64,000 nt of DNA from a virus (IMGVR_UViG_3300027804_000063:1-64000), one strand, 5' to 3'. Positions 11,632-29,811 are shown, numbered from the stretch's first letter. Numbers and translations: made by a program. Notes: generated by a model from the sequence alone, not told the origin.

Positions 11632-12053
11632 TATTCGCCTGCTTTGCGTCGTGGGCTGTTGATGAAATCTTGTTGGGCGTCGCGTTTCTCTGATCGTTGG
11701 ATGAAGCCTTCTATTTTGTCGGCGTCTCGGAATATCAAATCTATACCGTTATATTTTTTTTGTTGCGGGTTGTCGCCCATATGGAATGGGGAGGATGCAC
11801 AGCCGTCTATGGCTTGGCAGGATGCTTCTATGCCGTAGTCGTGGATTGATGCGGCGATTTTGACTTTGCGTTCGTGGTCTAGGACGGCACGGGTGGAGCC
11901 CATTGTTTTAACCCAGTAGTCCCATACGATTTTGACTGCTTCGTCGGAAATTTCTTTGGCTTTGGCGTTGCGTTGTTTTGTGGAGATCCGTGGACGGGTT
12001 TGTTTAGGTTTATTTACGCCACCGTTCGGATTGGGAAACAGTTCTTCAACCAT
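11631..12053 (-). CDS. phage replication-initiator C-terminal-like protein
   Basis: VWDYW...AIDGC..SPFHMG.N...YN.IDLIFRD pattern; coupled to the loader-like gene. Confidence 0.55.
   Translation of the reverse strand: MVEELFPNPNGGVNKPKQTRPRISTKQRNAKAKEISDEAVKIVWDYWVKTMGSTRAVLDHERKVKIAASIHDYGIEASCQAIDGCASSPFHMGDNPQQKKYNGIDLIFRDADKIEGFIQRSEKRDAQQDFINSPRRKAGE
12010..12034 (-). repeat. CGCCACCGTT box copy 1 (inside rep-like gene)
   Basis: tattta-CGCCACCGTT-cggattgg. Confidence 0.85.
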
Positions 12054-12317
12054 CGCAGACACTTTACATCCTTTTACTGAAAAGGTCAACATTGGAATCT
12101 ATAAATATCTGGTCCGGCCGGACCGGACGTTGTGGCAGTAATCATCTGTGGTAGCCACGTTGATTTAACTAAAGAGGAAAAACCACTAGTGGGTTTAAAA
12201 CTTTGGAGAGTGTGAGAACCTTTACCAAATCTTTTTTGGCGGACGCGCAGCCGAAACAAGATCCGCGATTTTGGGTAGTCGCAGATTAAGATTTGATTAT
12301 TGATCGCGCGCGAAAGG

Positions 12318-12342
12318 TTGTATACGCCACCGTTGCAGTTGG
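12318..12342 (-). repeat. CGCCACCGTT box copy 2
   Basis: tgtata-CGCCACCGTT-gcagttgg. Confidence 0.85.
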
Positions 12343-12606
12343 GTCACGAACTGCTTTATTGCGCTTACTATTTCATTCGGCGCAGTCCCGATGTGGTTGT
12401 ACAAGATAGCAGACGATCAGTCCCGCTACACGCACATTTAAAAGAAAAACCACTAGTAACGTTATATATCGTTATGTTGTGGTTTTTGTTGGTGTGCGGG
12501 GCTCCCGACCACAATATGTGGGGTAACGCTTATTGGGGGGCGGGACTTGCTAACCTTCCTTGTATCGGCGGGGCTTTGAAGACCCCCATCTAAAAAACTC
12601 GTCGTT

Positions 12607-12665
12607 GTAGTGGAGCGGGACTACGAACCCTTCTGTCGGGTTGGGTGTCGTAGCCCGCTCACTAC
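12607..12665. other. long bulged hairpin
   Basis: GTAGTGGAGCGGGACTACGA pairs with TCGTAGCCCGCTCACTAC with two extrahelical bases. Confidence 0.65.
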
Positions 12666-12728
12666 TTAACCAACTTCAACACAGGTTTTCTGTAGGTCGG
12701 ATGGTTACGCATTGAGCGTGACAGATCA

Positions 12729-12753
12729 TTGTTTCCGCCACCGTTCAGTTTGG
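12729..12753 (-). repeat. CGCCACCGTT box copy 3
   Basis: tgtttc-CGCCACCGTT-cagtttgg. Confidence 0.85.
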
Positions 12754-12770
12754 ATAACTTCGGTTTGGTT

Positions 12771-13115
12771 TTAGAACGGTTCTTCTGTGCCATCTTCATC
12801 ATCTTCTAGTTGATCTATCTTCTGTTGCCATTCCATCAAAATGTAAAACGCATCTGATCGTCGTTTAATTGCGTTACTGGTCATTATCGGCCAGTCTTTG
12901 ATTGGTGTTGCGAAACCTTCAAAGTGTTCTTGCATCCCTTCTTCAGTTCCACAGTCTGAACAGATCTCTATCGGTTTAGAGTGCTTGTCTCGTGTGAGAC
13001 GCGATATTGCGCCCATGTATTGTTTGTGATGTTCGTTGGAGGGAATTAGCCCTTCACATCGTGGGCATACACCCATGTCTATTTGTTTTGAATGGATCTT
13101 GTTAAACGGTTTCAT
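12771..13115 (-). CDS. Zn-finger hypothetical protein
   Basis: CPRC...ALSR-like...ICSDCG. Confidence 0.65.
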   Translation of the reverse strand: MKPFNKIHSKQIDMGVCPRCEGLIPSNEHHKQYMGAISRLTRDKHSKPIEICSDCGTEEGMQEHFEGFATPIKDWPIMTSNAIKRRSDAFYILMEWQQKIDQLEDDEDGTEEPF

Positions 13116-13260
13116 TATGTGTTCTTTCTTCTAGTGGTATATGTGGAGATTTTCTGTTTTCCCATCCGCAGATTTCTTCAAACCATTCATCCATCCATGA
13201 TGTGCGGGATGAATAGTTTACTTCTGTTATTGCCCACCCGCAGTATTTACAAGTTTTCAT
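13102..13260 (-). CDS. small Cys-containing hypothetical protein (52 aa)
   Basis: MKTCKYCG; ATG immediately after the repeat box at 13269. Confidence 0.55.
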   Translation of the reverse strand: MKTCKYCGWAITEVNYSSRTSWMDEWFEEICGWENRKSPHIPLEERTHNETV

Positions 13261-13261
13261 T

Positions 13262-13286
13262 TTATATACGCCACCGTTCAGTTTGG
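13262..13286 (-). repeat. CGCCACCGTT box copy 4 (spans a stop-start junction)
   Basis: ttatata-CGCCACCGTT-cagtttgg. Confidence 0.9.
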
Positions 13287-13469
13287 AATAGGGGTTTGTT
13301 TGAATGTCAGGTATCCGCCGTCGCAATCTGATGCGATTCCTGTTACCCAACATTCTTGTTCGTCGCCGACGATTGCGCGGATCTTCTGTATCGCGTTTGT
13401 CATTGCGTCGGTGTCGTATTCGCCGTCTACATCTGTTGTGACCATGACGGTGACTCTGTAGGTGGACAT
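13278..13469 (-). CDS. hypothetical protein
   Basis: co-oriented small ORF; its TGA lies inside the repeat box. Confidence 0.6.
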   Translation of the reverse strand: MSTYRVTVMVTTDVDGEYDTDAMTNAIQKIRAIVGDEQECWVTGIASDCDGGYLTFKQTPIPN

Positions 13470-13792
13470 TATTGGTTGTTCTCCAAATACTGTTCAACCG
13501 CTTTCAGACCTTTGTTGAGGAGAAGGGAGATTGGGAGGAACGCTGATGCGTGCTTCCCGTAGGTGTCACCGTTCTTCTCAATAGACTCTGCGATCAGTCG
13601 CTCTATGATGTCTTCGTTGAACGCGACACAAATGCTGTTATCGCCAATCCCATACACCAATGGTTCAAGTTCGTCCCTCTGAGGGAATACTTCTGGTGGT
13701 GCTGTCAAGAATGTGACGGTAGTTCCGTCTTCGTGTTGCATACGGATAAGAACATCTTTGTTGTCGTCGTCTGTAAACTCTGTGAAGTCCAT
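13469..13792 (-). CDS. hypothetical protein
   Basis: ORF coupled to neighbour by TAATG. Confidence 0.65.
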   Translation of the reverse strand: MDFTEFTDDDNKDVLIRMQHEDGTTVTFLTAPPEVFPQRDELEPLVYGIGDNSICVAFNEDIIERLIAESIEKNGDTYGKHASAFLPISLLLNKGLKAVEQYLENNQ

Positions 13793-13810
13793 TTTGTTTT
13801 CTTTCTGATG

Positions 13811-13835
13811 GCATATACGCCACCGTTCGGTTTGG
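13811..13835 (-). repeat. CGCCACCGTT box copy 5
   Basis: gcatata-CGCCACCGTT-cggtttgg. Confidence 0.9.
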
Positions 13836-13850
13836 ATAAAGCCACTTCGT

Positions 13851-14375
13851 TTAGAAGTGGTAGTCCACGATCACAATCCACTGCTTGTCAGGATTGGTTT
13901 CTGCTCGTTTGTGAACCCACTCAGGGTTGGGTGTGTATTCCACTGTGTCGTAGAACATGGTGTCTGAGTCGTATTCCCTGTTGAGGACTTTCAACGCTCG
14001 TGTGATCTTGAAGACCGCGAGACTTTCCTTCAGGTATGTGTCACGCTGTTCTTCTGTGAGTCCACCTAAAGGTTGGTTGAAACTTCCGAAAGTGTATTTC
14101 GGGTTGGTGAGGATTTCGCTCAACGGAATATCTCCGTAAAGTTCAACCGCTTTCGTGATCGTTTCTTGTGTCCATCCGCACGCAACCGTTATGAGTTCGT
14201 TGAATGCTTCAGGGTTGTCTTTGTAGTTTGTTGCGATCTTGCCGTCTTGCATACGCGAGTCGTCAGGGATTGAACACCAATCAGACCATCCTTGCGCTTC
14301 CGCAAAATCAAGTGCTATGTGCTTTGCGTCGTCTTCGTTGTCTGCTTCTACTGCTAGTCGGTGATATGTGTGCAT
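13851..14375 (-). CDS. hypothetical protein
   Basis: 174 aa ORF in the leftward operon. Confidence 0.7.
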   Translation of the reverse strand: MHTYHRLAVEADNEDDAKHIALDFAEAQGWSDWCSIPDDSRMQDGKIATNYKDNPEAFNELITVACGWTQETITKAVELYGDIPLSEILTNPKYTFGSFNQPLGGLTEEQRDTYLKESLAVFKITRALKVLNREYDSDTMFYDTVEYTPNPEWVHKRAETNPDKQWIVIVDYHF

Positions 14376-16152: not shown

Positions 16153-16173
16153 AGAATAGGTGAGGGGTGTAAC
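16153..16173 (-). promoter_or_regulatory. ACACC-box promoter P1
   Basis: GTTACACCC-N6-TATTCT. Confidence 0.75.
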
Positions 16174-16178
16174 ACGGT

Positions 16179-16535
16179 TTAGATGTCTTCGTCTTCTTGA
16201 TCTTCGTCGTCTTCGTAGTCTTCCCAATCCGCGCCTTGTGGGATGAGATTTGTGAAACCGTCGTTCGGGTTTTCTTCGTTGGTTTCAACCGCGTGAACGA
16301 AACGCAAACTGCACGACTCGTTATACCACTTGACGATCATGTCATACATTTCTTGCGGTGTTCCCGTGAAGTTGCGATCATCACAACTCACGCCGTTGTA
16401 GTTATCACGAAACCATTGCGCCTGACCTTCGTCCATTGCGACATAGATTTTGTGACAACCATCAAACGCGATCAGTTTCGCGGTTTCGGTTGCCTGTCTG
16501 ACATCCTCAAACAGTTCGGTGAGTGTTGCATTCAT
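16179..16535 (-). CDS. hypothetical protein
   Basis: AAGGAG RBS; FDGCHKIY; acidic tail. Confidence 0.7.
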   Translation of the reverse strand: MNATLTELFEDVRQATETAKLIAFDGCHKIYVAMDEGQAQWFRDNYNGVSCDDRNFTGTPQEMYDMIVKWYNESCSLRFVHAVETNEENPNDGFTNLIPQGADWEDYEDDEDQEDEDI

Positions 16536-16586
16536 TTTCTGCTCCTTTGTTTAGTAGGTTTATTCGGGTGTTTGCCCTTCCCCCAT

Positions 16587-16607
16587 ATTGTAGGGGAAGG
16601 GTGTAAC
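16587..16607 (-). promoter_or_regulatory. ACACC-box promoter P2
   Basis: GTTACACCC-N6-TACAAT. Confidence 0.75.
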
Positions 16608-16615
16608 ACGGTTAT

Positions 16616-17251
16616 TTAGACGGACACTTCCTCGTCTTCCAACATTGCTTTGCATTGCGCTTCAATGCCGTCAAGGACATTCGTGACACGCTCATATTGT
16701 GCGTCATAATCGTCTGCCTCAATCTCTGCGTCGCTCATTGACGGATATTCGCCCTCAATGTCTGCCACGACCACACCGTTGCGGATCGCCACACCACCTA
16801 AGAACGCCATACCGCCCTCCTCGTAAGAGAGAACAAAGTCAAGTGTTGGGAACTGTTTGGACACATTGCGTATGCCCTCACAAATCGGAGACCATGCGGT
16901 CATGAAAGTCATGTTCAGTTCGGTATCTGCGATCTGTCCGAACACACCGTCAAAGTCTGCCCACTTAGAACCGTAGTTCTTGCAGTTCCACTCATACCAA
17001 TCGGGTGCGCCGAACTTTTCCATGTTCTTCTTGTTCATTGCTTCCATCTTGAGTTGCTTTTCTGAACCCTCACCATAGAAACCTTTTGGTGTTGCTGTCA
17101 GTTCCTCAGGTGTCGGGAACAAGTTGTCAAGAATACTGAACTGATTGTATTCCTTGCGTTCGTCCTCGTTCTTGATGATCGCTTCGTGGAAACGCTTGAT
17201 CTCAGTCGCCTCCCCTGAAACGGTCAGGTTGTTAGTGCAATAGTTTGGCAT
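16616..17251 (-). CDS. DUF1281/YubB ferredoxin-like-fold protein
   Basis: MPNYCTN...WYEWNCKNYGSKW...FMTAWSP...YEE.G. Confidence 0.8.
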   Translation of the reverse strand: MPNYCTNNLTVSGEATEIKRFHEAIIKNEDERKEYNQFSILDNLFPTPEELTATPKGFYGEGSEKQLKMEAMNKKNMEKFGAPDWYEWNCKNYGSKWADFDGVFGQIADTELNMTFMTAWSPICEGIRNVSKQFPTLDFVLSYEEGGMAFLGGVAIRNGVVVADIEGEYPSMSDAEIEADDYDAQYERVTNVLDGIEAQCKAMLEDEEVSV

Positions 17252-17292
17252 TACTTCTCCTTGTTTAGTTAGGTTTATTTGCTTGCCCCAAC

Positions 17293-17313
17293 ATTATGCA
17301 TGATGGGTGTAAC
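17293..17313 (-). promoter_or_regulatory. ACACC-box promoter P3
   Basis: GTTACACCC-N6-CATAAT. Confidence 0.65.
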
Positions 17314-17351
17314 ACAGTTATTTTTTAGTAGGTATTTTTTATTACTCTCAC

Positions 17352-17380
17352 ATTATATATCCGACAAAAACAAAAAGCAA
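17352..17380 (-). promoter_or_regulatory. sigma-A-type promoter
   Basis: TTGCTT-N17-TATAAT. Confidence 0.7.
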
Positions 17381-17478
17381 CTATTCCCCAAAACTATTTA
17401 GACCTAAATACGGAGCGATATTTAGAGCGAAATCTAGAGCGATCACTCAGCCCGACCAAATGCGATCCGTATTCAGGT

Positions 17479-17503
17479 TTATATGCGCCACCGTTCAGGT
17501 TAG
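17479..17503 (-). repeat. CGCCACCGTT box copy 6
   Basis: ttatatg-CGCCACCGTT-caggttag. Confidence 0.9.
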
Positions 17504-17574
17504 ATGCGAACAACCAACCATTGCTAACTAACAATCGTTGCAAACTAGTCCCGCATCAACAAAGCCCACCCCAC

Positions 17575-17605
17575 AGCCCCGCCCCCCGCCGCAAGGCGCG
17601 GGACT
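17575..17605. repeat. AGYCCCG dyad 1
   Basis: AGCCCCGC-N15-GCGGGACT. Confidence 0.8.
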
Positions 17606-17610
17606 AATGC

Positions 17611-17639
17611 TTGCGAACGGCTGTTCGCCCTACTACTAT
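17611..17639 (+). promoter_or_regulatory. sigma-A-type leaderless promoter of the HA-HTH gene
   Basis: TTGCGA-N17-TACTAT-N7-ATG. Confidence 0.65.
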
Positions 17640-17646
17640 CGGGGCT

Positions 17647-18033
17647 ATGACAATCTCACGAACAGACAGATGGCAATACCGTTTCAATGCGCTCGTGCAA
17701 TACACCAACAGAACAGGAACATCACTCGTTCCCGCGACACAGGTTGAAGTGTACGAAGGGAAGAATGTCGCGCTCGGCGCATGGGTCGCGTACAACCGTC
17801 AGCAGTATCGCGCAGGAGAACTACCGCTTGAGCGAAAGCAAGCGTTGGAGCAACTCGCAGGTTGGCATTGGGAGAAGCAGAAACCTGGCAGACGCTACGA
17901 CATGACGCGAGACGCAGAGATCGCGAAGCGTTATCAGAGTGGTGAGCGCGTAGGAATGATCGCAGACAGTTTCAATCTGTCACGCCAACGGGTTCATCAA
18001 ATCTTGAAAAAGGTTTCATCACCAAATGTCTGA
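17647..18033 (+). CDS. helicase-associated (HA) domain plus C-terminal HTH protein
   Basis: W...F.AL..Y....G...VP...LG.WV...R...L..ERK..LE.L..W, then IADSFNLSRQRVHQI; apparently leaderless ATG. Confidence 0.75.
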   Translation: MTISRTDRWQYRFNALVQYTNRTGTSLVPATQVEVYEGKNVALGAWVAYNRQQYRAGELPLERKQALEQLAGWHWEKQKPGRRYDMTRDAEIAKRYQSGERVGMIADSFNLSRQRVHQILKKVSSPNV

Positions 18034-18370
18034 TTACGGTCATCAACACGACAAGCGCGATCATAACGCTTGGAAAAAGATGAGCGAATGGTCTCACAGC
18101 GTTCCTGATTACGAACTTGACGCATTGTGGGATGAAGACATTTGGAGCACAAATCTGCCACCTGTTGAGACGGGCGCACAGAAGTTTGGGAAGTTTCTTG
18201 TTGCGACACTCGGTCTCTTTATTGGTATCGCGCTCGTATCGGTTGTTTTCTATCAACTTGTTTTAGCGTTGGGTTTCACTGACATCACTTTCCGTGAAGC
18301 GGTGATCGCAACTGTGTGTGTCGCGTTTATTCGTTACGCCGACGCAGGAGTGATGAAACAACTCCGATAA
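18026..18370 (+). CDS. membrane protein
   Basis: two C-terminal TM helices. Confidence 0.6.
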   Translation: MSDYGHQHDKRDHNAWKKMSEWSHSVPDYELDALWDEDIWSTNLPPVETGAQKFGKFLVATLGLFIGIALVSVVFYQLVLALGFTDITFREAVIATVCVAFIRYADAGVMKQLR

Positions 18371-18499
18371 ACACATCAGGACGCACCCTTGCGAGTGCGC
18401 CCTGAGCGGAGAAGCGAAAGGTGAAAGGAGAAGTCCTTTCGTTCCTCTAGCGATACAGAATAACACATGAGTTATATGTCGTTCTGAAGCGATTAGGTT

Positions 18500-19993
18500 T
18501 TACCCCAATCGCTTTCCATTTAGTTTGAGATATGTTTCCTGCCAACATCTCGGATACCAACGGTTCGGTTTCTTGCCGACTGACAGTTGCTTCAACACCG
18601 CGAGACCGTCAGTGACATTGTGTGCCATAAACACTTTGTGCTTCAAGACTTCTTTTATGCAGTCCATTGCCAAGATGTCGTGGTATCCACCGTATTGACC
18701 ACCTGTGCCAAGACCGTGAACCTTGCCGTCAGTCACCCACACGATCGGTGTGGACGAACGCTTGCGTTGCTTCACTGCCCAACGGATTGCTTCTCCGTCT
18801 ACGCCGTTACCGCCGTTACGCTCGGGAAGTTTGTCAATCATTTTCCCGTTTTGTGCGAGAACGAGAAGGTTCGGTTTGACATTGTTTCGGTCTGCTGAAT
18901 AAACCGCAACCGTGCAACCTGGACTTGCTTCCGTGATGTCAAGGATGTCTTTGTTAGTGAAAGACATTGAACCTGAACCGTCAATCAGAACGATACCGCC
19001 GTTGCCTTTCTTGTATCGGTCAAACACACGCTTTTCGGGATCTGCGAGTGCGTTACCAATCCTGCGAGGGTTGCGACCCATGTTGCTCGCGACACGCTTG
19101 CGACCGAGACCGCCGTGCGCCTTGCGAGTGAGTGGGAGTGTTCCGACAATGAGTTTGCCCCAACTTGGAACAACACCATTGTTGCCCTTGCCGACTTCCG
19201 TAGGTCGTACCTTCTTTGGGTCTGCCTTTGGTTGTGCGTTGGTTGCGCCAACACCGCCCTTCCCGTCTTTCGTTGGGTCGTCCTTCTTTGGTTCGCCTTC
19301 GCCTTCCTTCTGACCGTTAGGTTCGTCCTGTTGCTCGTCCTCATCCTGTTGTGGTGGGTTCGCAAGACGATCTACCCACTCCGCAATACGCTCGGTGTGA
19401 GAGAAACCGAAAGGTGCAAGACCGTGACGAGGGTCTACTTCGGTTGAACCGAGTGTTCCCGTCTTGAACGCCTTGACAAACTCTTTCTCAACCGCCTTGA
19501 TGATCTCGCGCAATGTTTTCGCCCACGCAGGGTTCACACGCTTGACACCCGTGAGAAAATCTTTGCCACCACCACAGATTGAGTAACCGACCGCGATATA
19601 AACCGCCTGTGTCCAATCACCTGCTTCTGCGATACGAACGCCTGACGCTTTCTCACTTCCGTCCGCGAGGAGATCAACATCAAATCCTGCTTTCTTGATA
19701 AGAAAGTTCACGCGCACTTCCTCAACGACAGTCATTGCTTCCTCTGTCGCAATGCCACGCGCAATCCATTTCGGAAAATCATCCGCAGGTGAAAATCGTG
19801 CGTGTGCCATTTCGTGCGCACGGATAACTCGGTCAATCTGCTCGTCACCAACAGGAACAACCATGTGCTTCGTGACGACATTCGTCATTGGTTTGCCACG
19901 CACAGGTGCGCAAGTGTCTACGCGCCATACACCTGCGTCCTTATCTTTACGACCCAACATTTCGGGAAGTGGTCTGATTTCTACTTTCTGCAT
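18500..19993 (-). CDS. HExxH peptidase-like plus VWA domain protein (CobT-like partner)
   Basis: AHEMAH; LIDGSGSM MIDAS; VTDG. Confidence 0.8.
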   Translation of the reverse strand: MQKVEIRPLPEMLGRKDKDAGVWRVDTCAPVRGKPMTNVVTKHMVVPVGDEQIDRVIRAHEMAHARFSPADDFPKWIARGIATEEAMTVVEEVRVNFLIKKAGFDVDLLADGSEKASGVRIAEAGDWTQAVYIAVGYSICGGGKDFLTGVKRVNPAWAKTLREIIKAVEKEFVKAFKTGTLGSTEVDPRHGLAPFGFSHTERIAEWVDRLANPPQQDEDEQQDEPNGQKEGEGEPKKDDPTKDGKGGVGATNAQPKADPKKVRPTEVGKGNNGVVPSWGKLIVGTLPLTRKAHGGLGRKRVASNMGRNPRRIGNALADPEKRVFDRYKKGNGGIVLIDGSGSMSFTNKDILDITEASPGCTVAVYSADRNNVKPNLLVLAQNGKMIDKLPERNGGNGVDGEAIRWAVKQRKRSSTPIVWVTDGKVHGLGTGGQYGGYHDILAMDCIKEVLKHKVFMAHNVTDGLAVLKQLSVGKKPNRWYPRCWQETYLKLNGKRLG

Positions 19994-22510: not shown

Positions 22511-22517
22511 AACCACA

Positions 22518-22622: not shown

Positions 22623-22632
22623 GAGACAAAAT

Positions 22633-22671: not shown

Positions 22672-22674
22672 GAT

Positions 22675-22884: not shown

Positions 22885-23108
22885 TAGTAGACCCCGAACG
22901 ATATTCCGTCTGATGTCAGTCCGAACAACGCACCTGCGTCGTTTCCTTCTGTGTCCATTGACGGGTAAAGAATAGTTCCGCTAGAGAGAACGAGAACCAT
23001 TGGTATCTCATTCTTGCGCCAACCTTCTTTGTCCATTTCTGCTTGTGTCATTGGTCGGATATCAACAACTGTTGATCCGACAATGGTGTCGTCTATTGTG
23101 TCGCTCAT
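22884..23108 (-). CDS. hypothetical phage protein
   Basis: AAGGAG RBS; DTEGNDAGALF. Confidence 0.7.
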   Translation of the reverse strand: MSDTIDDTIVGSTVVDIRPMTQAEMDKEGWRKNEIPMVLVLSSGTILYPSMDTEGNDAGALFGLTSDGISFGVY

Positions 23109-23151
23109 TTACTTTCTCCTTTTGTTTAGGTTTATGTGAAGCGTCTCGCTG

Positions 23152-23406
23152 TTATGCGGACGCTTTTGGAAGTTTGAGACCTTTGAGTTCGCGTTCCAAC
23201 TCTGCGCCCTCAACATTGTTCATTAGGTCAATGAGTTCATCTAACCAAGTCGCAACGGGGATAGGTAGTGGTGTGACACGGAGATAGTCGTCGTACTTGG
23301 TGAGAACGCTATCTATCTCGCTCACTAATCCTGCGCCTTCAACATTGCGAACAATGTCAAAGATGTCGCGCAACAACTGTTTCCAATCTTGGTTTACTGT
23401 TTTCAT
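23152..23406 (-). CDS. hypothetical protein with internal repeat
   Basis: NVEGA(G/E)L repeated; RBS and promoter upstream. Confidence 0.65.
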   Translation of the reverse strand: MKTVNQDWKQLLRDIFDIVRNVEGAGLVSEIDSVLTKYDDYLRVTPLPIPVATWLDELIDLMNNVEGAELERELKGLKLPKASA

Positions 23407-23439
23407 TTGTGCTTCTCCTTTGTCTAGGTTTATATAACT

Positions 23440-23460
23440 ATCTTACTGAAGCGGTGTGAC
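23440..23460 (-). promoter_or_regulatory. ACACC-box promoter P8
   Basis: GTCACACCG-N6-TAAGAT. Confidence 0.75.
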
Positions 23461-23464
23461 AGGG

Positions 23465-23596
23465 TTATCCTGCCATCACCCGACTTGCTCCCACGATCCA
23501 CAACAACGACACTTCCAACGCCCAATCCTTTTCAGGGTTCTGAGTGTAGAACTCGTACCATTGCTTCGCTTCGTTGAGACATTCGCTGACTGACAT
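23465..23596 (-). CDS. micro-protein (43 aa)
   Basis: MSVSECLNEAKQW; TAATG coupling; not in ORF track. Confidence 0.45.
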   Translation of the reverse strand: MSVSECLNEAKQWYEFYTQNPEKDWALEVSLLWIVGASRVMAG

Positions 23597-23736
23597 TATT
23601 GACCATCTCCATTCCATCTGAACCCACGACATTCTTGCTTGTTACGCTTCTTGCGCTTGTCTGCGACACGCTGTGCCTTCAGGATATTCCTATCCGCGAA
23701 CGCTTGACGGTCTGCGTCATTCCATTTCTTATTCAT
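23596..23736 (-). CDS. basic micro-protein (46 aa)
   Basis: MNKKWNDADRQAFADRNILKAQRVADKRKK; TAATG both ends; not in ORF track. Confidence 0.6.
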   Translation of the reverse strand: MNKKWNDADRQAFADRNILKAQRVADKRKKRNKQECRGFRWNGDGQ

Positions 23737-24218
23737 TAGAACCTTCTCCTGTTTCTCCGCCACTCGTGGCAGTCGTGCTTTGCTTGCTCATCTACTTCTG
23801 CTTGCGTCATCTTTGCCGTGATCAACGGACGGTATCCGCACGAGTTACACGCGATACCGAGATATTCGGTGACACCTTGTGCCAACTGATATCCGTGAAC
23901 CGCCGTGTTGCCGTGTGTTCGTTCGTTGAGATAAACCGTGATGAACACTTCACAGTTCGCGCAACCGATGATCTTGACATCTTTGCCGTTTGTCGGTGCT
24001 TGCTTCGTAAAGAAGTCAAACTTGAAGTGCTTACAGGTTTCGCATTTGTCGTCAAGTTTGCGTGACTTGACGATTTCTGTTTTGCCCTCTGTGATTACTG
24101 AATACTCTTGTGGGAGTATTCCTTTCAAGGTCGCTTGATGAATGAGGTGATTTCGCACCAACCATTCCGTGTAAGGCTTTGCAACCTTTGCGACTTTGGT
24201 CTTTCCTTTCTTTGCCAT
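23736..24218 (-). CDS. multi-CxxC Zn-binding protein
   Basis: three CxxC pairs plus HDC; AAGGAG RBS. Confidence 0.7.
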   Translation of the reverse strand: MAKKGKTKVAKVAKPYTEWLVRNHLIHQATLKGILPQEYSVITEGKTEIVKSRKLDDKCETCKHFKFDFFTKQAPTNGKDVKIIGCANCEVFITVYLNERTHGNTAVHGYQLAQGVTEYLGIACNSCGYRPLITAKMTQAEVDEQAKHDCHEWRRNRRRF

Positions 24219-24261
24219 TTCTAGTTTCTCCTTGTTTAGGTTTATCTAACTCGCTACTTAC

Positions 24262-24282
24262 ACTATATACGCACGGTGTCAT
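24262..24282 (-). promoter_or_regulatory. ACACC-box promoter P9
   Basis: ATGACACCG-N6-TATAGT. Confidence 0.7.
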
Positions 24283-24353
24283 ATAGTTTGTGTCATTTAT
24301 AGACCTAATAATAAATATACTTCTAATATATCAGGGGCATAATATACCCACAC

Positions 24354-24374
24354 TTATCCACAGGCTGTGAATAA
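24354..24374. promoter_or_regulatory. inverted DnaA-box pair
   Basis: TTATCCACA (perfect)-ggc-TGTGAATAA. Confidence 0.65.
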
Positions 24375-24420
24375 CTAGATCACCCAACTCCACTTAGCAC
24401 TAAATACAAAAACACAGCAG

Positions 24421-24445
24421 TTATATACGCCACCGTTCAAGTTGG
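24421..24445 (-). repeat. CGCCACCGTT box copy 8
   Basis: ttatata-CGCCACCGTT-caagttgg. Confidence 0.9.
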
Positions 24446-24494
24446 GGTTGATGTCACGACATCACGACAGCAGATCCGCGATCCGCCAGCCCAC

Positions 24495-24526
24495 AGCCCC
24501 GCGCCCATCTTCCGATGCGCGGGACT
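24495..24526. repeat. AGYCCCG dyad 4
   Basis: AGCCCCGC-N16-GCGGGACT. Confidence 0.8.
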
Positions 24527-24801
24527 CACAAGTCTCGGCTTGTTCTTCGGGACTGTAGGATGCGTTTATGCCCCATCCATTCCGTCCGCGTAAAGAATCC
24601 CATAACTTGCAGATCGTTGAGATCATTGACGCGATCGCTCAAACTGAGCCCGAACTATTTGGCGTTGGGACTGCAACACTTATGCCCGTCAAGCACTCCG
24701 CACGGCTCACACTTGCAGACGATCTGCACCCCTACTATCAGCCCCTAACGCAAAATAGCCCGCCTACCGAACGGCAGACGGGCTAATTGTTTGAGTGCTA
24801 G

Positions 24802-25053
24802 TTACTTCGGTTGCGCCTCACTCCATAGGTGTCTAAATACGAACTTCGGAATCGGATGCCCGTCGTTCGTAAAGTAGTAACCATTCTCAAGTGTTGAATG
24901 ATCGGGAATAGTTACGATCTGACGCTTGCTAACACGCCCACCATACCAATACCCAACGATAAAGATATTGTGATCGCTTGTCGTCTCCCATTGCCAACGC
25001 GACTTACCGACATACCCCTTATAGGTAAGTTGAGTGCTCACGACTGCACCCAC
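24802..25053 (-). CDS. hypothetical protein
   Basis: co-oriented ORF; start uncertain (GTG 25041 possible). Confidence 0.5.
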   Translation of the reverse strand: MGAVVSTQLTYKGYVGKSRWQWETTSDHNIFIVGYWYGGRVSKRQIVTIPDHSTLENGYYFTNDGHPIPKFVFRHLWSEAQPK

Positions 25054-25289
25054 CCGTTAGGTGTGCGCATTGCGTATAGATACGGTATGACGCTCAGAAT
25101 GAGATCGGTAAGTGCCTGCGACACTTCATCCCGACTAGTTGCCATACCGTGAATGAAGTCGTCGTCAATGCGCCCATGAATGAGATCATCCACGATCGCG
25201 CCAATAACTCCGATACCTATCGCACCTATGCCGAGATAATTCTCCGCAAGGACTTCGCTAATAGATACCGTCTCCGTAATGTCTGACAT
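25038..25289 (-). CDS. hypothetical protein
   Basis: GAAGGG RBS-like sequence upstream. Confidence 0.55.
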   Translation of the reverse strand: MSDITETVSISEVLAENYLGIGAIGIGVIGAIVDDLIHGRIDDDFIHGMATSRDEVSQALTDLILSVIPYLYAMRTPNGWVQS

Positions 25290-25393
25290 AAATTGCCCTT
25301 CGTGTAGTAGTTGCTTAGTAATCGGCTTACGCCTTGTGCCTAGTTGGAATTGAATCCCACGCCGAACGCGCTAGGCGACTCACCTAGTGAGTG

Positions 25394-25831
25394 TTACGCA
25401 CCGTGTGCGCCGTCTCCACCCATTGAGATAAGTGTCGCACGCTCCCACACTTCACGCACTTGCTCACTCGCACCCGAGAGACCATTGTTGAGATAGTCAA
25501 TGACACGACTCTCAAACTCGCCCAACGCCTTCGCGCTATAACGCGCGATCGGTTGAGTTGCAACCGTGCCACACGGATAGTTCACCGTGTCAAAAATTGT
25601 GAACTTCACGACTTCGTAACCGTTGCCACGATCGTAGTGTGCATAACGGATATGCGCACTGAATTGCTTGCGATCTGAATCATGCGAGATACTCAACTTG
25701 ACTAGTCCGCCAACTTGCTCACCGTCAAACTGAATTGACTGCGAAGGACTGCGCCAAGTGTAAGAGACTTCACGATCGCCCACCTTGCGAGTGGCTTGTG
25801 CGAAGTTCGCACCTTGAGTAATAACCGACAT
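25394..25831 (-). CDS. hypothetical protein
   Basis: AAGGGAG RBS and promoter upstream. Confidence 0.7.
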   Translation of the reverse strand: MSVITQGANFAQATRKVGDREVSYTWRSPSQSIQFDGEQVGGLVKLSISHDSDRKQFSAHIRYAHYDRGNGYEVVKFTIFDTVNYPCGTVATQPIARYSAKALGEFESRVIDYLNNGLSGASEQVREVWERATLISMGGDGAHGA

Positions 25832-25880
25832 TATTTGCTCCCTTGTCTAGTAAATATAAGCGGAATTGCTTATACAAATA

Positions 25881-25901
25881 ACTATACGCAAGGGGTGTTG
25901 C
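25881..25901 (-). promoter_or_regulatory. ACACC-box promoter P10
   Basis: GCAACACCC-N6-TATAGT. Confidence 0.75.
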
Positions 25902-25988
25902 ATAGTGTGACTGCACACGATCAGGTAAATAAGTGAGATATCGCTCATCCGCCATAGCCCGAGATCGGTATCTACGATCGTAGATATT

Positions 25989-26013
25989 TTGTATCCGCCA
26001 CCGTTCAGGTTGG
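25989..26013 (-). repeat. CGCCACCGTT box copy 9
   Basis: ttgtatc-CGCCACCGTT-caggttgg. Confidence 0.9.
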
Positions 26014-26058
26014 GGACTTCAGATCCGCCCCTCCCCGCGACGCGCGTCCGCGCCCGCG

Positions 26059-26090
26059 AGCCCCGCGCGCTGAATTGTTGGCGCGGGACT
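26059..26090. repeat. AGYCCCG dyad 5
   Basis: AGCCCCGC-N16-GCGGGACT. Confidence 0.8.
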
Positions 26091-26139
26091 GATGCGGTTT
26101 ATGCCATCTTCAGACAGTTGATCTTCAGATCAGATCAAA

Positions 26140-26170
26140 AGCCCCGCGCGCGTCTTCGTGTGACGGGGCT
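26140..26170. repeat. AGYCCCG dyad 6
   Basis: AGCCCCGC-N15-ACGGGGCT. Confidence 0.75.
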
Positions 26171-26171
26171 G

Positions 26172-26495
26172 TCAAGTCCAAATGATCTTCGCAACTCCCC
26201 AGCGCTGCAGAGCCGCTTCGCATCTTTTACACGGCTTTGAGTTGGCGGGCAAACCATTGGCAAGAACTCGGGCAACATACACAGTCGCACCCGATATTTG
26301 AGACCCTGCCGATATCGCTCCTGCTATCTCTGCGTGGATATGCGACCTACGCCAAGCGTGGTGAACATCTCCGACACGCTTATTGGTGGCTTTGGCTACA
26401 ACACGCCCGTTACGCACCACAACGCACCCGTGGCGGTGTCTACACCTGCTCTGAAGGGCTGTAGCGACCGCTGTGCGGAGATGATGCTTGGACAT
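26172..26495 (-). CDS. Zn-dependent cytidine/dCMP deaminase-family protein
   Basis: HAE and PCKRC motifs. Confidence 0.85.
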   Translation of the reverse strand: MSKHHLRTAVATALQSRCRHRHGCVVVRNGRVVAKATNKRVGDVHHAWRRSHIHAEIAGAISAGSQISGATVYVARVLANGLPANSKPCKRCEAALQRWGVAKIIWT

Positions 26496-26531
26496 AGGTT
26501 GGCATAGTTTATATGCCGACCCTAGAAACGC

Positions 26532-26567
26532 AAAAAGCCCCCACCCCGACAGAAGGGTGAGGGCTTG
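26532..26567 (-). terminator. intrinsic terminator
   Basis: GC stem followed by TTTTT on the - strand after gene 26582. Confidence 0.7.
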
Positions 26568-26581
26568 CGCCTGTGTGTGGA

Positions 26582-26998
26582 TTACGCCGAGAGTGCTTCC
26601 ACCTTCGCGCGAACATTCGCGATATTGGTGAAATGCTTGTCACCTGCGGGGGTGGTGAAACCGACCTTGATGACACCGTAACCGTCCTCTTGGGGTGCGA
26701 CCCAAAAGACCACGCCGACCGTGCCCTTAGGAACTTTGCGCCCCTTGAACACCTCAACGGTTTGACCCTTGACGATTTCGCCGTTCGCGATCGCCTGTGC
26801 GAGACGCTCCTCGTTGAGACGGACGACTTCCGCCCAACGCGCGACCTGCTCCTCCGTGTGCCTGTGTGGTTGCTTCCAACGACCCACACCACCCTCGTAT
26901 ACCTGACCTGCGCGCTCCGCGAGATAACGCACACCGTTACGGTTAGTGTCCCAAAACACCTCCGCACCGCACCCGCGACAACTGATTACTTTGCTCAT
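26582..26998 (-). CDS. hypothetical protein (CxxC, C-terminal SH3-like)
   Basis: AAGGAGG RBS; own promoter and terminator. Confidence 0.7.
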   Translation of the reverse strand: MSKVISCRGCGAEVFWDTNRNGVRYLAERAGQVYEGGVGRWKQPHRHTEEQVARWAEVVRLNEERLAQAIANGEIVKGQTVEVFKGRKVPKGTVGVVFWVAPQEDGYGVIKVGFTTPAGDKHFTNIANVRAKVEALSA

Positions 26999-27031
26999 AT
27001 GCCCTCCTTAGGGGTCTAGTAGTTACTACAG

Positions 27032-27052
27032 ACATTACGCACAGGGTGTCAC
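27032..27052 (-). promoter_or_regulatory. ACACC-box promoter P11
   Basis: GTGACACCC-N6-TAATGT. Confidence 0.75.
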
Positions 27053-27079
27053 AGAGTGTGACTTGGATAAACCTAAACG

Positions 27080-27174
27080 GCGAAGCCGCTTTGTGACCGT
27101 GCGAAGCCGCTCGGCAGCGTCACCAAGCCGCTCGGCAGCGCTGGCTTTCCGCGTTCCGCAGCGCTGGCTTTCCC
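27080..27174 (+). repeat. overlapping short direct repeats
   Basis: GCGAAGCCGCT x2, AAGCCGCTCGGCAGCG x2, GCAGCGCTGGCTTTCC x2. Confidence 0.75.
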
Positions 27175-27181
27175 TCCTCAC

Positions 27182-27212
27182 AGCCCCGCAAACCGCGTAA
27201 CTACGCGGGACT
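27182..27212. repeat. AGYCCCG dyad 7
   Basis: AGCCCCGC-N15-GCGGGACT. Confidence 0.8.
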
Positions 27213-27289
27213 AGCAGGTTGGCGACAAACAGTAGCGTTTGGGGAGGACCTCCCGCAGGACCTGACGCGGAGGACCCGACGAAACGTTC

Positions 27290-27410
27290 AAAAAACGTCA
27301 GTTTTTGCACGTTTTTGCTGGTTTTAGAAAAACGCGTTTTTACAACTTTTTTTGCGGTTTTTGAAAGCCTTATTTTATAAGGGTTTTACGGAGGGTGTTT
27401 TTGGGAACTT
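27290..27410. other. phased A/T-tract array (intrinsically bent DNA)
   Basis: T-tracts at about 27302, 27312, 27322, 27337, 27347, 27358, 27374, 27384, 27397. Confidence 0.65.
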
Positions 27411-27499
27411 TCCCACCCAACTCAGAAAACCATCAAAAACGTCACTTTTTGATCAACCCGGCTGCCAGGTCCGTCTTCAGCCCGGGAAGATGCGGTTAC

Positions 27500-27530
27500 A
27501 GTCCCGAAGATCTGTCGCTGATGCGGGGCT
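27500..27530. repeat. AGYCCCG dyad 8
   Basis: AGTCCCGA-N15-GCGGGGCT. Confidence 0.75.
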
Positions 27531-27730
27531 CAGAAGAGAGTTGGTGCGTCATCAAACGCGTTACGCGACTCTGTGCAGATGCGGTGGGCGTAACCAAGTG
27601 GGGTTGAAGGGTTGCGAGGTGCGCCAATGTATCTTCCGTCTTTGTGTTCTATCCAAGACAGTATCTTGACGCAGTATTGGGTGTTGAGGGTGTCAAACTC
27701 TATGTTGCAGATGGAGCAGGCGACTTTCAT
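27530..27730 (-). CDS. small Zn-binding hypothetical protein
   Basis: CSIC...HRIC. Confidence 0.55.
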   Translation of the reverse strand: MKVACSICNIEFDTLNTQYCVKILSWIEHKDGRYIGAPRNPSTPLGYAHRICTESRNAFDDAPTLF

Positions 27731-27749
27731 GCCTGTCAGACTAGCGGAT

Positions 27750-27914
27750 TTAGTTTTGTGGTGCGCTGTCTACGGACAGTTCGTTGTGTGACCGTAGGTC
27801 TAACAGCAGATCAACCATCTCTGCGGAGGACACTAGTTCCCGACCCGAGATGGTTTTGATCGCGTTGTCAATGACCTGAACAACTGTGAGTTCTTTTACT
27901 GTATCTGTGACCAT
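27750..27914 (-). CDS. micro-protein (54 aa)
   Basis: MVTDTVKELTVVQVIDNAIK; not in ORF track. Confidence 0.5.
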   Translation of the reverse strand: MVTDTVKELTVVQVIDNAIKTISGRELVSSAEMVDLLLDLRSHNELSVDSAPQN

Positions 27915-28351
27915 TGTTCATCGTCCTCAATGATTTCTGATGCGCTGAGAACCATGCCGTCTAGTTCAAAATCAACACAGTTCAACCAACCATCAACTAT
28001 ACCGTCTCCGTATGCGTAGAGATCAAACCACGCATTATTGACCCACTCAATGCGCTCTGCTTCATCTGCTTCACGCAACTTTTGGTCGGTGTCAATACCT
28101 GCGCGCATGAGACGGTCGCAGTAACGGATAACTTCAGGGTCGTCACCACGCTCTCGTGCTTCTTTGCTTTCCCAAAGGTTGAGACGCATTTCGCCGTCGC
28201 AGAACACTCTGACTTCACGGTCGCCCATTGTGACGGTCGCGATGTGTTGATGTGCGTTTGCGTCCCAAACATAGAACGCAGGGTCTTGTCGGTGCTTCCG
28301 ATCTTCGTCTGTCACCTCATAGGTGATTTTGATGTCGGGTTTAGTTTCCAT
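27896..28351 (-). CDS. hypothetical protein
   Basis: AAGGAG RBS; WVNNAWFDL. Confidence 0.7.
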   Translation of the reverse strand: METKPDIKITYEVTDEDRKHRQDPAFYVWDANAHQHIATVTMGDREVRVFCDGEMRLNLWESKEARERGDDPEVIRYCDRLMRAGIDTDQKLREADEAERIEWVNNAWFDLYAYGDGIVDGWLNCVDFELDGMVLSASEIIEDDEQWSQIQ

Positions 28352-28380
28352 TTACTTCTCCTTGTCTAGTAGTTGATGCA

Positions 28381-28401
28381 AGAATACCCGAAGGGTGTCG
28401 C
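28381..28401 (-). promoter_or_regulatory. ACACC-box promoter P12
   Basis: GCGACACCC-N6-TATTCT. Confidence 0.75.
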
Positions 28402-28405
28402 AGGG

Positions 28406-28561
28406 TTATTCGTAAAAAGGTTCAGCGGGTTTCTGTCTCGGGGTCGGGTTGTTTCGTGCGAGTTTGCGTATCTGATACAACGCAAACAAAATAGGGACAC
28501 CGAAGAACGCCACCAAGATCATCTTGATACCCAAGACGACACCTAAGACACGCTTATTCAC
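28406..28561 (-). CDS. small single-TM protein
   Basis: GTG start; VLGVVLGIKMILVAFFGVPILFALY; not in ORF track. Confidence 0.5.
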   Translation of the reverse strand: MNKRVLGVVLGIKMILVAFFGVPILFALYQIRKLARNNPTPRQKPAEPFYE

Positions 28562-28766
28562 GGACACCAACCAAGTTCAACGCTTCGTCTAGTTGCATTG
28601 TGGTTTTGATGGAGTGATCGCCGTCGTATGCGACTGTCACAAAGTTCGCACCTTGTGACGGGTCTTTCGCTAACGCACAGATTTCTCCGTATGCCTGAAC
28701 GATCGCGTCTAAATGATCGTCTGCCTCATACACCATCTGCCAAGTGACCAAGTATGATTTGCTCAT
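28554..28766 (-). CDS. hypothetical protein
   Basis: ATGA overlap at 28763-28766. Confidence 0.6.
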   Translation of the reverse strand: MSKSYLVTWQMVYEADDHLDAIVQAYGEICALAKDPSQGANFVTVAYDGDHSIKTTMQLDEALNLVGVRE

Positions 28767-28975
28767 ACGCTGAGGTCTGCCTGCCACGCGAACATTGGGG
28801 AAACGCCAAGTTCATCTTTGATACAACGGAGGGTAACTTCTGTATCAACTTTGTACTGTTCCAACAACGCGAGGGTGTCTGCGAGTTTGAGTTTGTCGCT
28901 CTCTATCTGAGAACGAAGTTCATAAACTTGCTTTGACAAACTCTCAAATGTTTGCTTGTTTCTACGGAGTTTCAT
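28763..28975 (-). CDS. coiled-coil hypothetical protein
   Basis: heptad pattern; TAATG coupling. Confidence 0.6.
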   Translation of the reverse strand: MKLRRNKQTFESLSKQVYELRSQIESDKLKLADTLALLEQYKVDTEVTLRCIKDELGVSPMFAWQADLSV

Positions 28976-29361
28976 TACTTGTCTGCCTTTCGGTCTGCTT
29001 GTGGATCTCTTACTTCATACCGACGACCCTCACGCTTGATGAAGATGTCGGGTCTATCTGTAACAACCTTGCGTGCTGTCGCTTCGGATACTTCTCCGAT
29101 TTCTGCGAGTTGCTTGATAGTCACCAACTCAAAGACATTGTCTTTCGCCCACGACAAAATGTCGTTCTTGCCGTCTTGCGCCGTGCGCCAACCTTCGCTG
29201 TGCTCTGCGTTCGCCAACAGTTCCGCTTTGATGTGTGACGGAACAATGTCACGGACACGCTTCGCCACATGTGCAACCCAAACGGGTGTTCCGTATACAC
29301 GGATCGCTTCTGTGACTTCGCGTATCGCGCTGTCAAGTTCTGTGTCTAGTTCGTTACTCAT
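28975..29361 (-). CDS. hypothetical protein with C-terminal HTH-like segment
   Basis: ATG 29361 lies 7 nt after TATAGT (leaderless); TIKQLAEIGEVSEATARK. Confidence 0.65.
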   Translation of the reverse strand: MSNELDTELDSAIREVTEAIRVYGTPVWVAHVAKRVRDIVPSHIKAELLANAEHSEGWRTAQDGKNDILSWAKDNVFELVTIKQLAEIGEVSEATARKVVTDRPDIFIKREGRRYEVRDPQADRKADK

Positions 29362-29368
29362 AGTATCT

Positions 29369-29389
29369 ACTATACGCAACGGGTGTGAC
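29369..29389 (-). promoter_or_regulatory. ACACC-box promoter P13 (leaderless)
   Basis: GTCACACCC-N6-TATAGT-N7-ATG. Confidence 0.8.
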
Positions 29390-29405
29390 AAAGTGTGCGA
29401 TGCCA

Positions 29406-29669
29406 TTAGAACAAGTCCTTTTCGTCTTGAAGAAAGTCAGGAACAACTAGTCCCTTTTGCGCCTCTATACACGCACTCTCCGCTTCGTATATTGACTTCT
29501 TGACTTGCGCCAATGCGTTCTTGTATACCGCACTTTGGTTTGCTTCGTCGGTTCGTAAAAGTTCCGACACAACAAGATCGTATGCAGTATTCAGAGATCG
29601 CAATACCCGACTAAGACTGAGATAGTCCTCGTCAAAGATTTGTTTGATCGTGTTCTGTGTTTCAGTCAC
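29406..29669 (-). CDS. hypothetical protein
   Basis: GTG start below a sigma-A-type promoter. Confidence 0.6.
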   Translation of the reverse strand: MTETQNTIKQIFDEDYLSLSRVLRSLNTAYDLVVSELLRTDEANQSAVYKNALAQVKKSIYEAESACIEAQKGLVVPDFLQDEKDLF

Positions 29670-29716
29670 TATCTTTTTATACCCCTTTCAGAGTTCTAGG
29701 TTTATCTAACACTACC

Positions 29717-29745
29717 ATTATATATACCCCCACAACAAAAAGCAA
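29717..29745 (-). promoter_or_regulatory. sigma-A-type promoter
   Basis: TTGCTT-N17-TATAAT. Confidence 0.7.
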
Positions 29746-29786
29746 CCCCACCCCAAACATTTGTTTGCCCACCTCCCCAAAAACTT

Positions 29787-29811
29787 TTATATCCGCCACC
29801 GTTCGGTTTGC
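29787..29811 (-). repeat. CGCCACCGTT box copy 10
   Basis: ttatatc-CGCCACCGTT-cggtttgc. Confidence 0.9.

Follow-up and report, generated by a model that had tools for sequence, protein, structure and literature searches.

In mycobacteriophage L5 and the other phages of Cluster A, a 13-mer site recurs more than 20 times across the whole genome, both within promoters and in the short gaps between genes, and these stoperators are read by the monomeric immunity repressor of a temperate phage (PMC9283540). Here, we describe an asymmetric box of ~26 bp that occurs ten times, always in the same orientation, in the viral contig IMGVR_UViG_3300027804_000063. The analyzed window consisted of the first 64 kb of this 74,185-bp IMG/VR contig, the completeness of which is rated 52%. 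A first-pass annotation of the window had described the boxes as stoperator-like. Similar to the L5 stoperators, they are asymmetric, have a 13-bp heart, share GGTGGC with the L5 consensus, and occur in many copies with one orientation relative to the local genes; several of them lie in very short intergenic gaps, and a two-domain monomeric reader is plausible. However, whereas the L5 sites are genome-wide, the 10–11 sites found here all lie in 17–18 kb (about an eighth) of genomes of 138–145 kb, and no box covers a −35 or −10 element, those boxes that have a recognizable promoter nearby being located 20–160 nt upstream of it or at +20 to +45 downstream. A tblastn search with L5 gp71 against the contig and two near-complete relatives returned a best E-value of 0.98, i.e., no homologue, and no integrase (PF00589, tyrosine; PF00239, serine) was found in these three sequences, so the phage is probably lytic. 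Furthermore, the specificity of the box is frozen across the family, whereas immunity systems diversify. Membership of the L5-type stoperators was rejected on the block-confined sites, the lack of promoter overlap, and the absence of gp71 and integrase; the asymmetry and co-orientation stand, and a polar block is among the two best mechanisms discussed below.

Two other phage systems are partly comparable. The PeSL (promoter-early stem-loop) cassettes of T4-type phages also consist of repeated, co-oriented modules of a stem-loop and a promoter region in a plastic block of small early genes of unknown function; unlike in those cassettes, the repeated box is not a host-type promoter here, and the module has three parts, namely a dyad, the box, and a separate sigma-A-type promoter. 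The pairing of an early phage helix-turn-helix (HTH) protein, labeled Mor in some records, with a conserved box and no −35 element is similar to the MotA box and to Mu Mor/C. In contrast to both, no TAnnnT occurs at any fixed distance downstream of the box, and unlike the dyads of Mor/C, the box is asymmetric and in some cases too near a start codon or inside a gene. The box is a real and strongly conserved cis element, not described before, in a widespread family of uncultured phages. It is ordinary in kind, being a phage regulatory box, and unusual in its architecture and in the absence of a recognizable reader.

The Box and Its Conservation Across the Phage Family

The 10-mer core CGCCACCGTT was found on the plus strand in nine exact copies, starting at 12017, 12325, 12736, 13269, 13818, 17486, 24428, 25996, and 29794, and the tenth copy, at 21890, has one mismatch (GACGGTGGCG) and complete flanks. 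When one mismatch was allowed, the window contained 13 matches, compared with 3.8 ± 1.8 in shuffled sequences, and none of the 100 shuffles reached 13. The remaining three matches (9730 on the minus strand; 14181 and 14946 on the plus strand) lack the flanks of the box and are chance occurrences. No exact copy was found on the opposite strand of the window, nor in the final 10 kb of the contig. With a 34-nt position weight matrix (PWM), the ten sites scored 40–45 and the best other match in the contig scored < 12. Our recount agrees with the first-pass annotation, which had reported nine exact copies and one single-mismatch copy on one strand within 12.0–29.8 kb, and the conserved flanks are as it had described them.

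Read leftward, the consensus of the box is yCCAAmyTG-AACGGTGGCG-kAwAyR. Its invariant 13-bp heart, ACGGTGGCG-k-A-w-A, holds over 105 sites of lineage A, to which the contig belongs, and 16 sites of the more distant lineage B; among 90 unique sites, nine core positions and both A's of the tail are invariant or nearly so. Natural variants of the box read CGGTAGCG. The tail of lineage A, kAwAyRAA, is AT-rich and has an invariant purine 6 nt past the core.

A pattern scan of IMG/VR returned many contigs with several copies of the box. The two near-complete relatives used for comparison measure 138 kb (G001, 97% complete) and 145 kb (G003, 100% complete). Counted by strand, the PWM sites number 10 and 0 in the contig, 11 and 0 in G001, and 10 and 0 in G003, all within 17–18 kb; in both relatives, this block consists of leftward, small early-type genes, and the best other PWM score is 13.9. 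One shared orientation per locus was observed in all 44 related loci with a PWM match, and no natural inversion was found in any of the relatives. The block proteins of the contig are 36–89% identical to those of the relatives. In alignments of orthologous sites, the box remains constant while the flanks and neighboring genes diverge, i.e., the box constitutes a phylogenetic footprint. The gene content between the conserved modules is plastic; for example, a cassette between two box modules (26172-26495, minus strand) has no tblastn match in G001 or G003.

Lineage B is represented by two distant relatives, L141 and L143, in which the HA protein (described below) is 53–61% identical to that of the contig and the gene order is kept: DUF1281_C, the HA gene and its partner on the opposite strand, a protein of ~500 aa, and an AAA_5 ATPase. 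They contain 7 and 9 co-oriented copies, respectively, of ACGGTGGCGGA(A/T)A with quite different flanks: the CCAA element is absent, the tail is GGAAAGC, and the surroundings are GC-rich, with an AT fraction over the tail region of 0.46 compared with 0.64 in the lineage of the contig. Because the tails differ in this way, the universal element is the asymmetric 13-bp heart, which stays intact in syntenic relatives at protein identities of about 50%, and the TATA-like tail, which gives the boxes of the contig their promoter-like look, is a trait of the contig's own lineage. In L143, a stop codon precedes one box and a strong terminator follows it at 12 nt, and another box lies directly upstream of a canonical AAGGAGG ribosome-binding site.

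Outside this family, the element was essentially absent. A 19-position pattern gave one chance-level match in 185,579 prokaryote genomes, which eliminated a host regulon motif as a candidate. The core 9-mer is not enriched in Cantare and GMA6, the cultured phages related through their capsid protein; a megablast search of the region against 50,697 cultured phages gave no match, and a literature search for the core string returned only unrelated papers, with no phage or regulatory context among those listed. Since the box is asymmetric, strictly co-oriented, and under strong purifying selection, it very probably binds a protein. Three boxes overlap coding sequences in differing reading frames, which places the signal in the nucleic acid rather than in a peptide; these differing frames, together with the indels that adjoin boxes, also ruled out a coding repeat (N-G-G). 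A hairpin of CCAAC with GGTGG was rejected because of an invariant A-G mismatch and the lack of covariation. A sigma-A promoter was likewise rejected: TAnnnT is absent in every register of the box, with a purine instead of T at the would-be −7 position of 90 of 90 sites, while the 13 ACACC-type promoters and the located sigma-A-type promoters of the same phage all keep TAnnnT. By eye, the spacings do not fit ECF (extracytoplasmic function), SigF/SigB-type, sigma-54, or PafBC-type promoters either.

With regard to the phage itself, the contig carries two WhiB genes (10272-10586 and 50510-50863) and genes for a primase-helicase, a ribonucleotide reductase, SSB, DNA methylases, an SNF2 helicase, and a MoxR-type ATPase, and its major capsid protein shares 47% identity with the counterparts in Brevibacterium phage Cantare and Gordonia phage GMA6. 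The WhiB genes and the capsid kinship indicate an uncultured actinophage. Two leaderless genes with a −10, N7, ATG geometry, encoding the HA-HTH protein (17611-17649, plus strand) and an O-like initiator (12051-12089, minus strand), also fit an actinobacterial host. The G+C content of the contig (about 46%) is close to that of cultured ‘Ca. Planktophila’ (46.5%), whose phages are similar in this respect (PMC10202952), a match that hints only weakly at the host. Members of this phage family are abundant in lakes and absent from culture; in G+C content they match the dominant freshwater Nanopelagicales. From sequence alone, the box delimits a complete regulon across the family, with a cis code and a short list of candidate readers, and the invariant 13-mer can serve as a marker of the family and of its early block in metagenomes whichever of the two mechanisms considered below is correct.

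Locations of the Boxes in the Early Block

In the leftward reading used here, all ten boxes are assigned to the minus strand, and all genes that adjoin them are leftward, with the exception of the HA-HTH operon. The boxes mark transcription-unit boundaries, stand just before small genes, or lie within genes. Half of the sites are upstream of promoters, and two of these, boxes 1 and 5, are in divergent intergenic regions. Host-type promoters of two kinds were recognized, TTGnnn-17-TAnnnT (e.g., 29717-29745 and 17352-17380) and ACACC-N7-TAnnnT.

Boxes 1–5 are located in long intergenic modules, which in the transcription direction consist of a dyad, a linker of 55–85 nt, the box, and, after 20–160 nt, a host-type promoter (modules 1, 2, 3, and 5). 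The linker between dyad and box is GC-rich in modules 1–4, and strong leftward terminators are located upstream of boxes 2, 3, and 4. Box 1 (29786-29811; core 29794-29803) lies between a plus-strand gene (29966-30565) and a leftward gene (29669-29406), with a dyad upstream and a sigma-A-type promoter 48 nt downstream. The plus-strand gene, which encodes 199 aa, is real: it is 69–70% identical to its relatives, compared with about 45–53% for the antisense frames. Box 2 (25988-26013; core 25996-26005) is preceded by two dyads and has an ACACC-N7-TAnnnT promoter (25881-25898) ~110 nt downstream. Box 3 (24420-24445; core 24428-24437) is preceded by a terminator (24756-24785) and a dyad (24495-24526) and followed by an inverted pair of DnaA boxes, a conserved AT-rich stretch, and a promoter (24262-24279). 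Box 4 (21882-21907; core 21890-21899, GACGGTGGCG) comes after two terminators (22024-22049 and 21982-22013) and lies upstream of DnaA boxes; downstream of it, no promoter was recognized with conviction. Box 5 (17478-17503; core 17486-17495) is in the divergent region that adjoins the rightward HA-HTH operon, with a sigma-A promoter (17352-17380) and an ACACC-type promoter downstream. No same-strand promoter was found upstream of boxes 1 and 5, so these two boxes are apparently not transcribed.

Boxes 6–10 are packed into 1.8 kb, where the genes lack Shine-Dalgarno sequences and no ACACC-type promoter was found. At several sites, a start codon follows 7–31 nt past the core. Box 6 (13810-13835; core 13818-13827) begins 6 nt past a hairpin (13842-13860) that spans a stop codon; its core ends 25 nt ahead of the ATG at 13792, and there is no conserved element other than the box between the hairpin and this ATG. 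Box 7 (13261-13286; core 13269-13278) includes the TGA of the gene at 13469-13278, and its core ends 7–9 nt ahead of the conserved ATG of a 52-aa CxxC protein (13260-13102), an arrangement that agrees with the first-pass annotation, in which this copy held the stop codon of one gene and stood just before the next ATG. Box 8 (12728-12753; core 12736-12745) lies within a conserved gene for a 45-aa basic protein (12799-12662), where it is read as K-L-N-G-G-G. Box 9 (12317-12342; core 12325-12334) follows a conserved hairpin and lies in ~400 nt in which no convincing gene was recognized. Box 10 (12009-12034; core 12017-12026) covers codons 6–12 of the leaderless O-like replication-initiation gene (11631-12053, minus strand; phrog_16167, E = 1e-17), which is transcribed from a promoter of the form TTGACC-17-TAAAGT at 12061-12089; this copy had correctly been placed inside a coding region before. 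Box 10 and its orthologues lie at +20 to +45 from the start point of this conserved sigma-A promoter.

A long hairpin (12600-12660, minus strand) follows the 45-aa gene and shows compensatory changes among the relatives (GGGCTACGA/TCGTAGTCC compared with GGGCTGTG/CACAGCCC). After it come about 300 nt without a convincing gene, and the element could be a structured RNA or an elaborate terminator. Rfam and tRNA scans of the window gave no match.

Candidate Reader and Possible Modes of Action

Only two rightward genes are present inside the block, and neither of them contains a box. They encode a 128-aa protein (17647-18033, plus strand) with an HA domain (E = 1.5e-15) and a C-terminal HTH that weakly matches HTH_7 and sigma-70 region 4, and a partner of 114 aa (18026-18370, plus strand) without a family match, which is co-oriented with the HA-HTH gene and kept in synteny. 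The HA-HTH gene, among the candidate regulators named in the first-pass annotation, is not a WhiB gene and is distinct from the two WhiB genes of the contig; it has its own sigma-A promoter (17611-17639) and a leaderless ATG. The 52 homologues found are all metagenomic, and several of them are labeled ‘Mor family transcriptional regulator’ (JGI) or have a PF08765 match; a tblastn search against 50,697 cultured phages found no homologue. Across 24 aligned homologues, which extend to 50% identity, the recognition helix L-S-R-Q-R-(V)-H-Q does not vary. The confident AlphaFold model of the protein (pLDDT 85) retrieved only generic HTH folds with Foldseek, among them DNA-binding domains of the resolvase and LuxR types, with Mu C and Mor ranking far lower, and neither the HA-HTH protein nor the O-like protein had a significant match among solved structures. 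In all relatives, the HA-HTH operon is syntenic with a neighboring region (18500-20827, minus strand) that encodes a MoxR-type AAA_5 ATPase and a protein of ~500 aa; the nearest named atlas neighbors of the latter (497 aa, 18500-19993) are VWA/CobT-like, which weakly suggests that it is a partner of this kind for the MoxR-type ATPase. A polymerase was considered for this 497-aa protein and rejected.

The HA-HTH protein is the best candidate for the reader of the box; the 114-aa partner, a small protein (10903-11088), the O-like protein, and the WhiB proteins are further candidates. The recognition helix is as invariant as the box heart, and just as invariant as the half-sites of the dyad.

In our estimation, the chances are about even that the boxes are polar docking sites of a phage-encoded factor that controls host RNA polymerase at the unit boundaries of the early block. 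The strand-specific boxes would be recognized by an early phage DNA-binding protein, which, once bound, would act on host RNA polymerase in an orientation-dependent manner at the unit boundaries of the leftward block. Two sub-mechanisms are considered. The first, which we advance tentatively, is a protein-dependent polar block or insulator, in which the factor would halt or terminate polymerase arriving by readthrough from the unit before and would damp the cluster of small genes; such a block is stoperator-like in action, not in ancestry. It would fit boxes 2–4, which are just behind terminators or dyads, as well as boxes 7, 8, and 10, the GC-rich contexts, and the lineage-B box that is followed by a terminator. 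In its favor are the lineage-B boxes in GC-rich DNA without an easily melting region, the location of box 10 at +20 to +45, and that of box 7, the core of which ends 7–9 nt before an ATG; at box 6, a stalled polymerase would sit on a weak terminator. The other, which appears somewhat more doubtful, is a factor-dependent restart, i.e., a second-wave promoter or activator site. It would fit boxes 1–6 and 9, would supply the promoter that is missing behind the hairpin at 13.85 kb, and is favored by boxes 1 and 5, which head leftward units in divergent regions. If a polar block is correct, stoperator-like control is convergent and also used by lytic phages, rather than being peculiar to the temperate Cluster A. 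If a restart is correct, actinobacterial RNA polymerase is redirected by a new route that involves no recognizable sigma factor. It is also conceivable, though we consider it rather unlikely, that the boxes form a convergent polar punctuation code of a lytic actinophage family, which evolved independently of Cluster A. In such a code, an invariant 13-bp box, often with a dyad at a fixed geometry, would be read by a minimal protein with an HA domain and a sigma-4-like domain; depending on the context, this reader would stop incoming host polymerase or permit restart, so that each early cassette would be insulated and exchangeable.

Several observations weigh against control of host polymerase at docking sites. 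Each sub-mechanism leaves some sites unexplained: a roadblock would have no obvious target at box 1 and hardly one at box 5, and a promoter makes no sense at the L143 box at 2639, within the 45-aa gene, or 7–9 nt before an ATG. A restart would need a sigma-like factor because all 90 sites have a purine at the −7 position of any −10 reading. The distance between box 1 and its sigma-A promoter varies among the relatives (48, 39, and 20 nt), which argues against an activator of fixed geometry. Since the block is uniformly leftward, orientation with transcription is indistinguishable from one absolute orientation; co-orientation with transcription was observed, but it is not independently informative. 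Finally, it is a guess that the HA-HTH protein reads the box and not the dyad; its fold matches only generic HTH domains. The −35 element of its gene abuts a dyad, so the protein could read the dyad instead of the box, and the dyads are an equally possible target.

The commonest explanation of repeated, co-oriented 20–30-bp motifs in phage early regions is that they are promoters, and the boxes might be autonomous phage-specific promoters for a dedicated form of polymerase, with a T7-like geometry, a start in or just past the tail, and tandem copies at the heads of units. The boxes come after terminators, two leftward units have boxes 1 and 5 as their first element, and the genes behind boxes 6–9 have no Shine-Dalgarno sequence or other promoter. 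The AT-rich melting segment and purine start of T7-like promoters are present in lineage A (kAwAyR, with the invariant purine 6 nt past the core) and absent in lineage B, where the tail GGAAAGC lies in GC-rich DNA (AT 0.46 and 0.38). Furthermore, the box lacks TAnnnT, one box has a strong terminator within 12 nt, and two are inside genes. No phage RNA polymerase or sigma factor was found either: the search for PF00940 gave no match, though the control for that search also failed to match; sigma region 2 (PF04542) gave none; TIGR02937 detected only a generic N-terminal HTH in a 213-aa protein (52612-53253); and no ORF (open reading frame) of at least 800 aa in G003 has a polymerase signature in Pfam or PHROGs. 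Taken together, we consider autonomous promoters unlikely. We assign a low, though appreciable, probability to the boxes being polar sites of a DNA transaction, namely iteron-like sites of the O-like initiator, fork barriers, strand-specific nicks, or marks of a T5-style stepwise entry, because one absolute orientation over the whole block, the only property tested, is exactly what such systems show. Box 10 lies within the O-like initiator gene, as origins do in lambda O, and pairs of DnaA boxes with an AT-rich stretch are found just downstream of boxes 3 and 4. However, the spacing of 300 bp to 4 kb is unlike that of iterons; unlike in the lambda-O type, only one box is in the O-like gene, and its neighbors are 300–550 bp apart. 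The sites also closely follow gene boundaries and dyad modules, which a pure DNA signal need not do, nothing found here ties the O-like protein to the box, and no nicking enzyme was flagged in the Pfam and PHROG scans, which were not aimed at such enzymes.

An action in the elongation complex or in RNA, either as an ops- or nut-like site for loading a processivity or antitermination factor or as the operator of a translational repressor, is suggested by the core, which matches Escherichia coli ops at 8 of 12 positions in the same orientation (variants reading CGGTAGCG are closer still), a similarity that is within chance given the number of comparisons tried. As with ops/RfaH, the element depends on orientation and accompanies genes that lack Shine-Dalgarno sequences (those behind boxes 6–9), and many boxes stand 7–30 nt before start codons. 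Unlike in the ops/RfaH system, no NusG paralogue (PF02357) was found in the phage, the host phylum differs, and at least two boxes, 1 and 5, are apparently untranscribed; moreover, boxes 1–5 are upstream of the promoters that they accompany. We therefore regard a role at the RNA level as very improbable. Least probable of all is that the boxes are mainly recombination scaffolds, in which the box and dyad modules would flank variable cassettes and mediate their shuffling, as in the T4-type PeSL cassettes. The cassettes do differ among the relatives while the modules are near-identical, as seen at 26172-26495, but homologous recombination needs neither an invariant 13-mer nor a fixed strand, and a conserved regulatory module would more likely give rise to shuffling as a side effect.

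Neighboring Elements and Other Features

The promoter element (TGTn)ACACC-N7-TAnnnT occurs in 13 copies, compared with 1.5 expected by chance; 12 of these are leftward within 16153-29386 (minus strand), and one is at 30573-30590 (plus strand). They are usually located 15–40 nt ahead of a ribosome-binding site. The element upstream of the −10 occupies the place of the −26 element in mycobacterial PafBC-type promoters.

The dyads have the form AGYCCCG-N16-18-CGGGRCT and are present in ten copies with folding energies of −15 to −24 kcal/mol. In the window, they were located at 29862-29892, 27500-27530, 27182-27212, 26140-26170, and 26059-26090, and further at 24495-24526, 22592-22622, 21982-22013, and 17575-17605 (minus strand). 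Those at 29862-29892, 26140-26170, 26059-26090, 24495-24526, and 21982-22013 are each 55–85 nt upstream of a box, and the dyad at 17575-17605 adjoins the −35 element of the HA-HTH promoter. The inner sequence is variable and often contains GAAGAkG, and the dyads are kept in both lineage-B relatives. Since their hairpins are stable but mostly lack T tracts, the dyads could be protein operators rather than terminators.

Conserved, inverted pairs of DnaA boxes (TTATCCACA) are located at 24354-24374 and 21839-21871, just downstream of boxes 3 and 4. In module 3, the pair adjoins a highly conserved AT-rich segment at about 24290-24350, and this combination suggests a possible DnaA-dependent replication origin.

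Among the ORFs of at least 800 aa in G003, which otherwise encode structural, secreted, or tail proteins, paralogues of 931, 955, and 890 aa have no family match. Three to four paralogues of 890–1,140 aa are found beside the portal gene (79960-89037 in G003, L122/L123; 68962-72384 in the contig). Their N-terminal ~150 residues are 75–93% identical among the copies and their C-termini are divergent, and they may be exchangeable receptor-binding or ejection proteins.

Lastly, a leader element, TAAACCTA(A/G)AC or ACTA(A/G)AC, was found directly upstream of AAGGAG sites on both strands, for example at 24238-24244, 23426-23432, 23128-23134, 17271-17277, and 16556-16562, and on the plus strand at 10263-10269 and 9339-9345. 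The 9-mer of this leader occurs 15 times in the contig and may be a translation enhancer or an RNA-processing signal.

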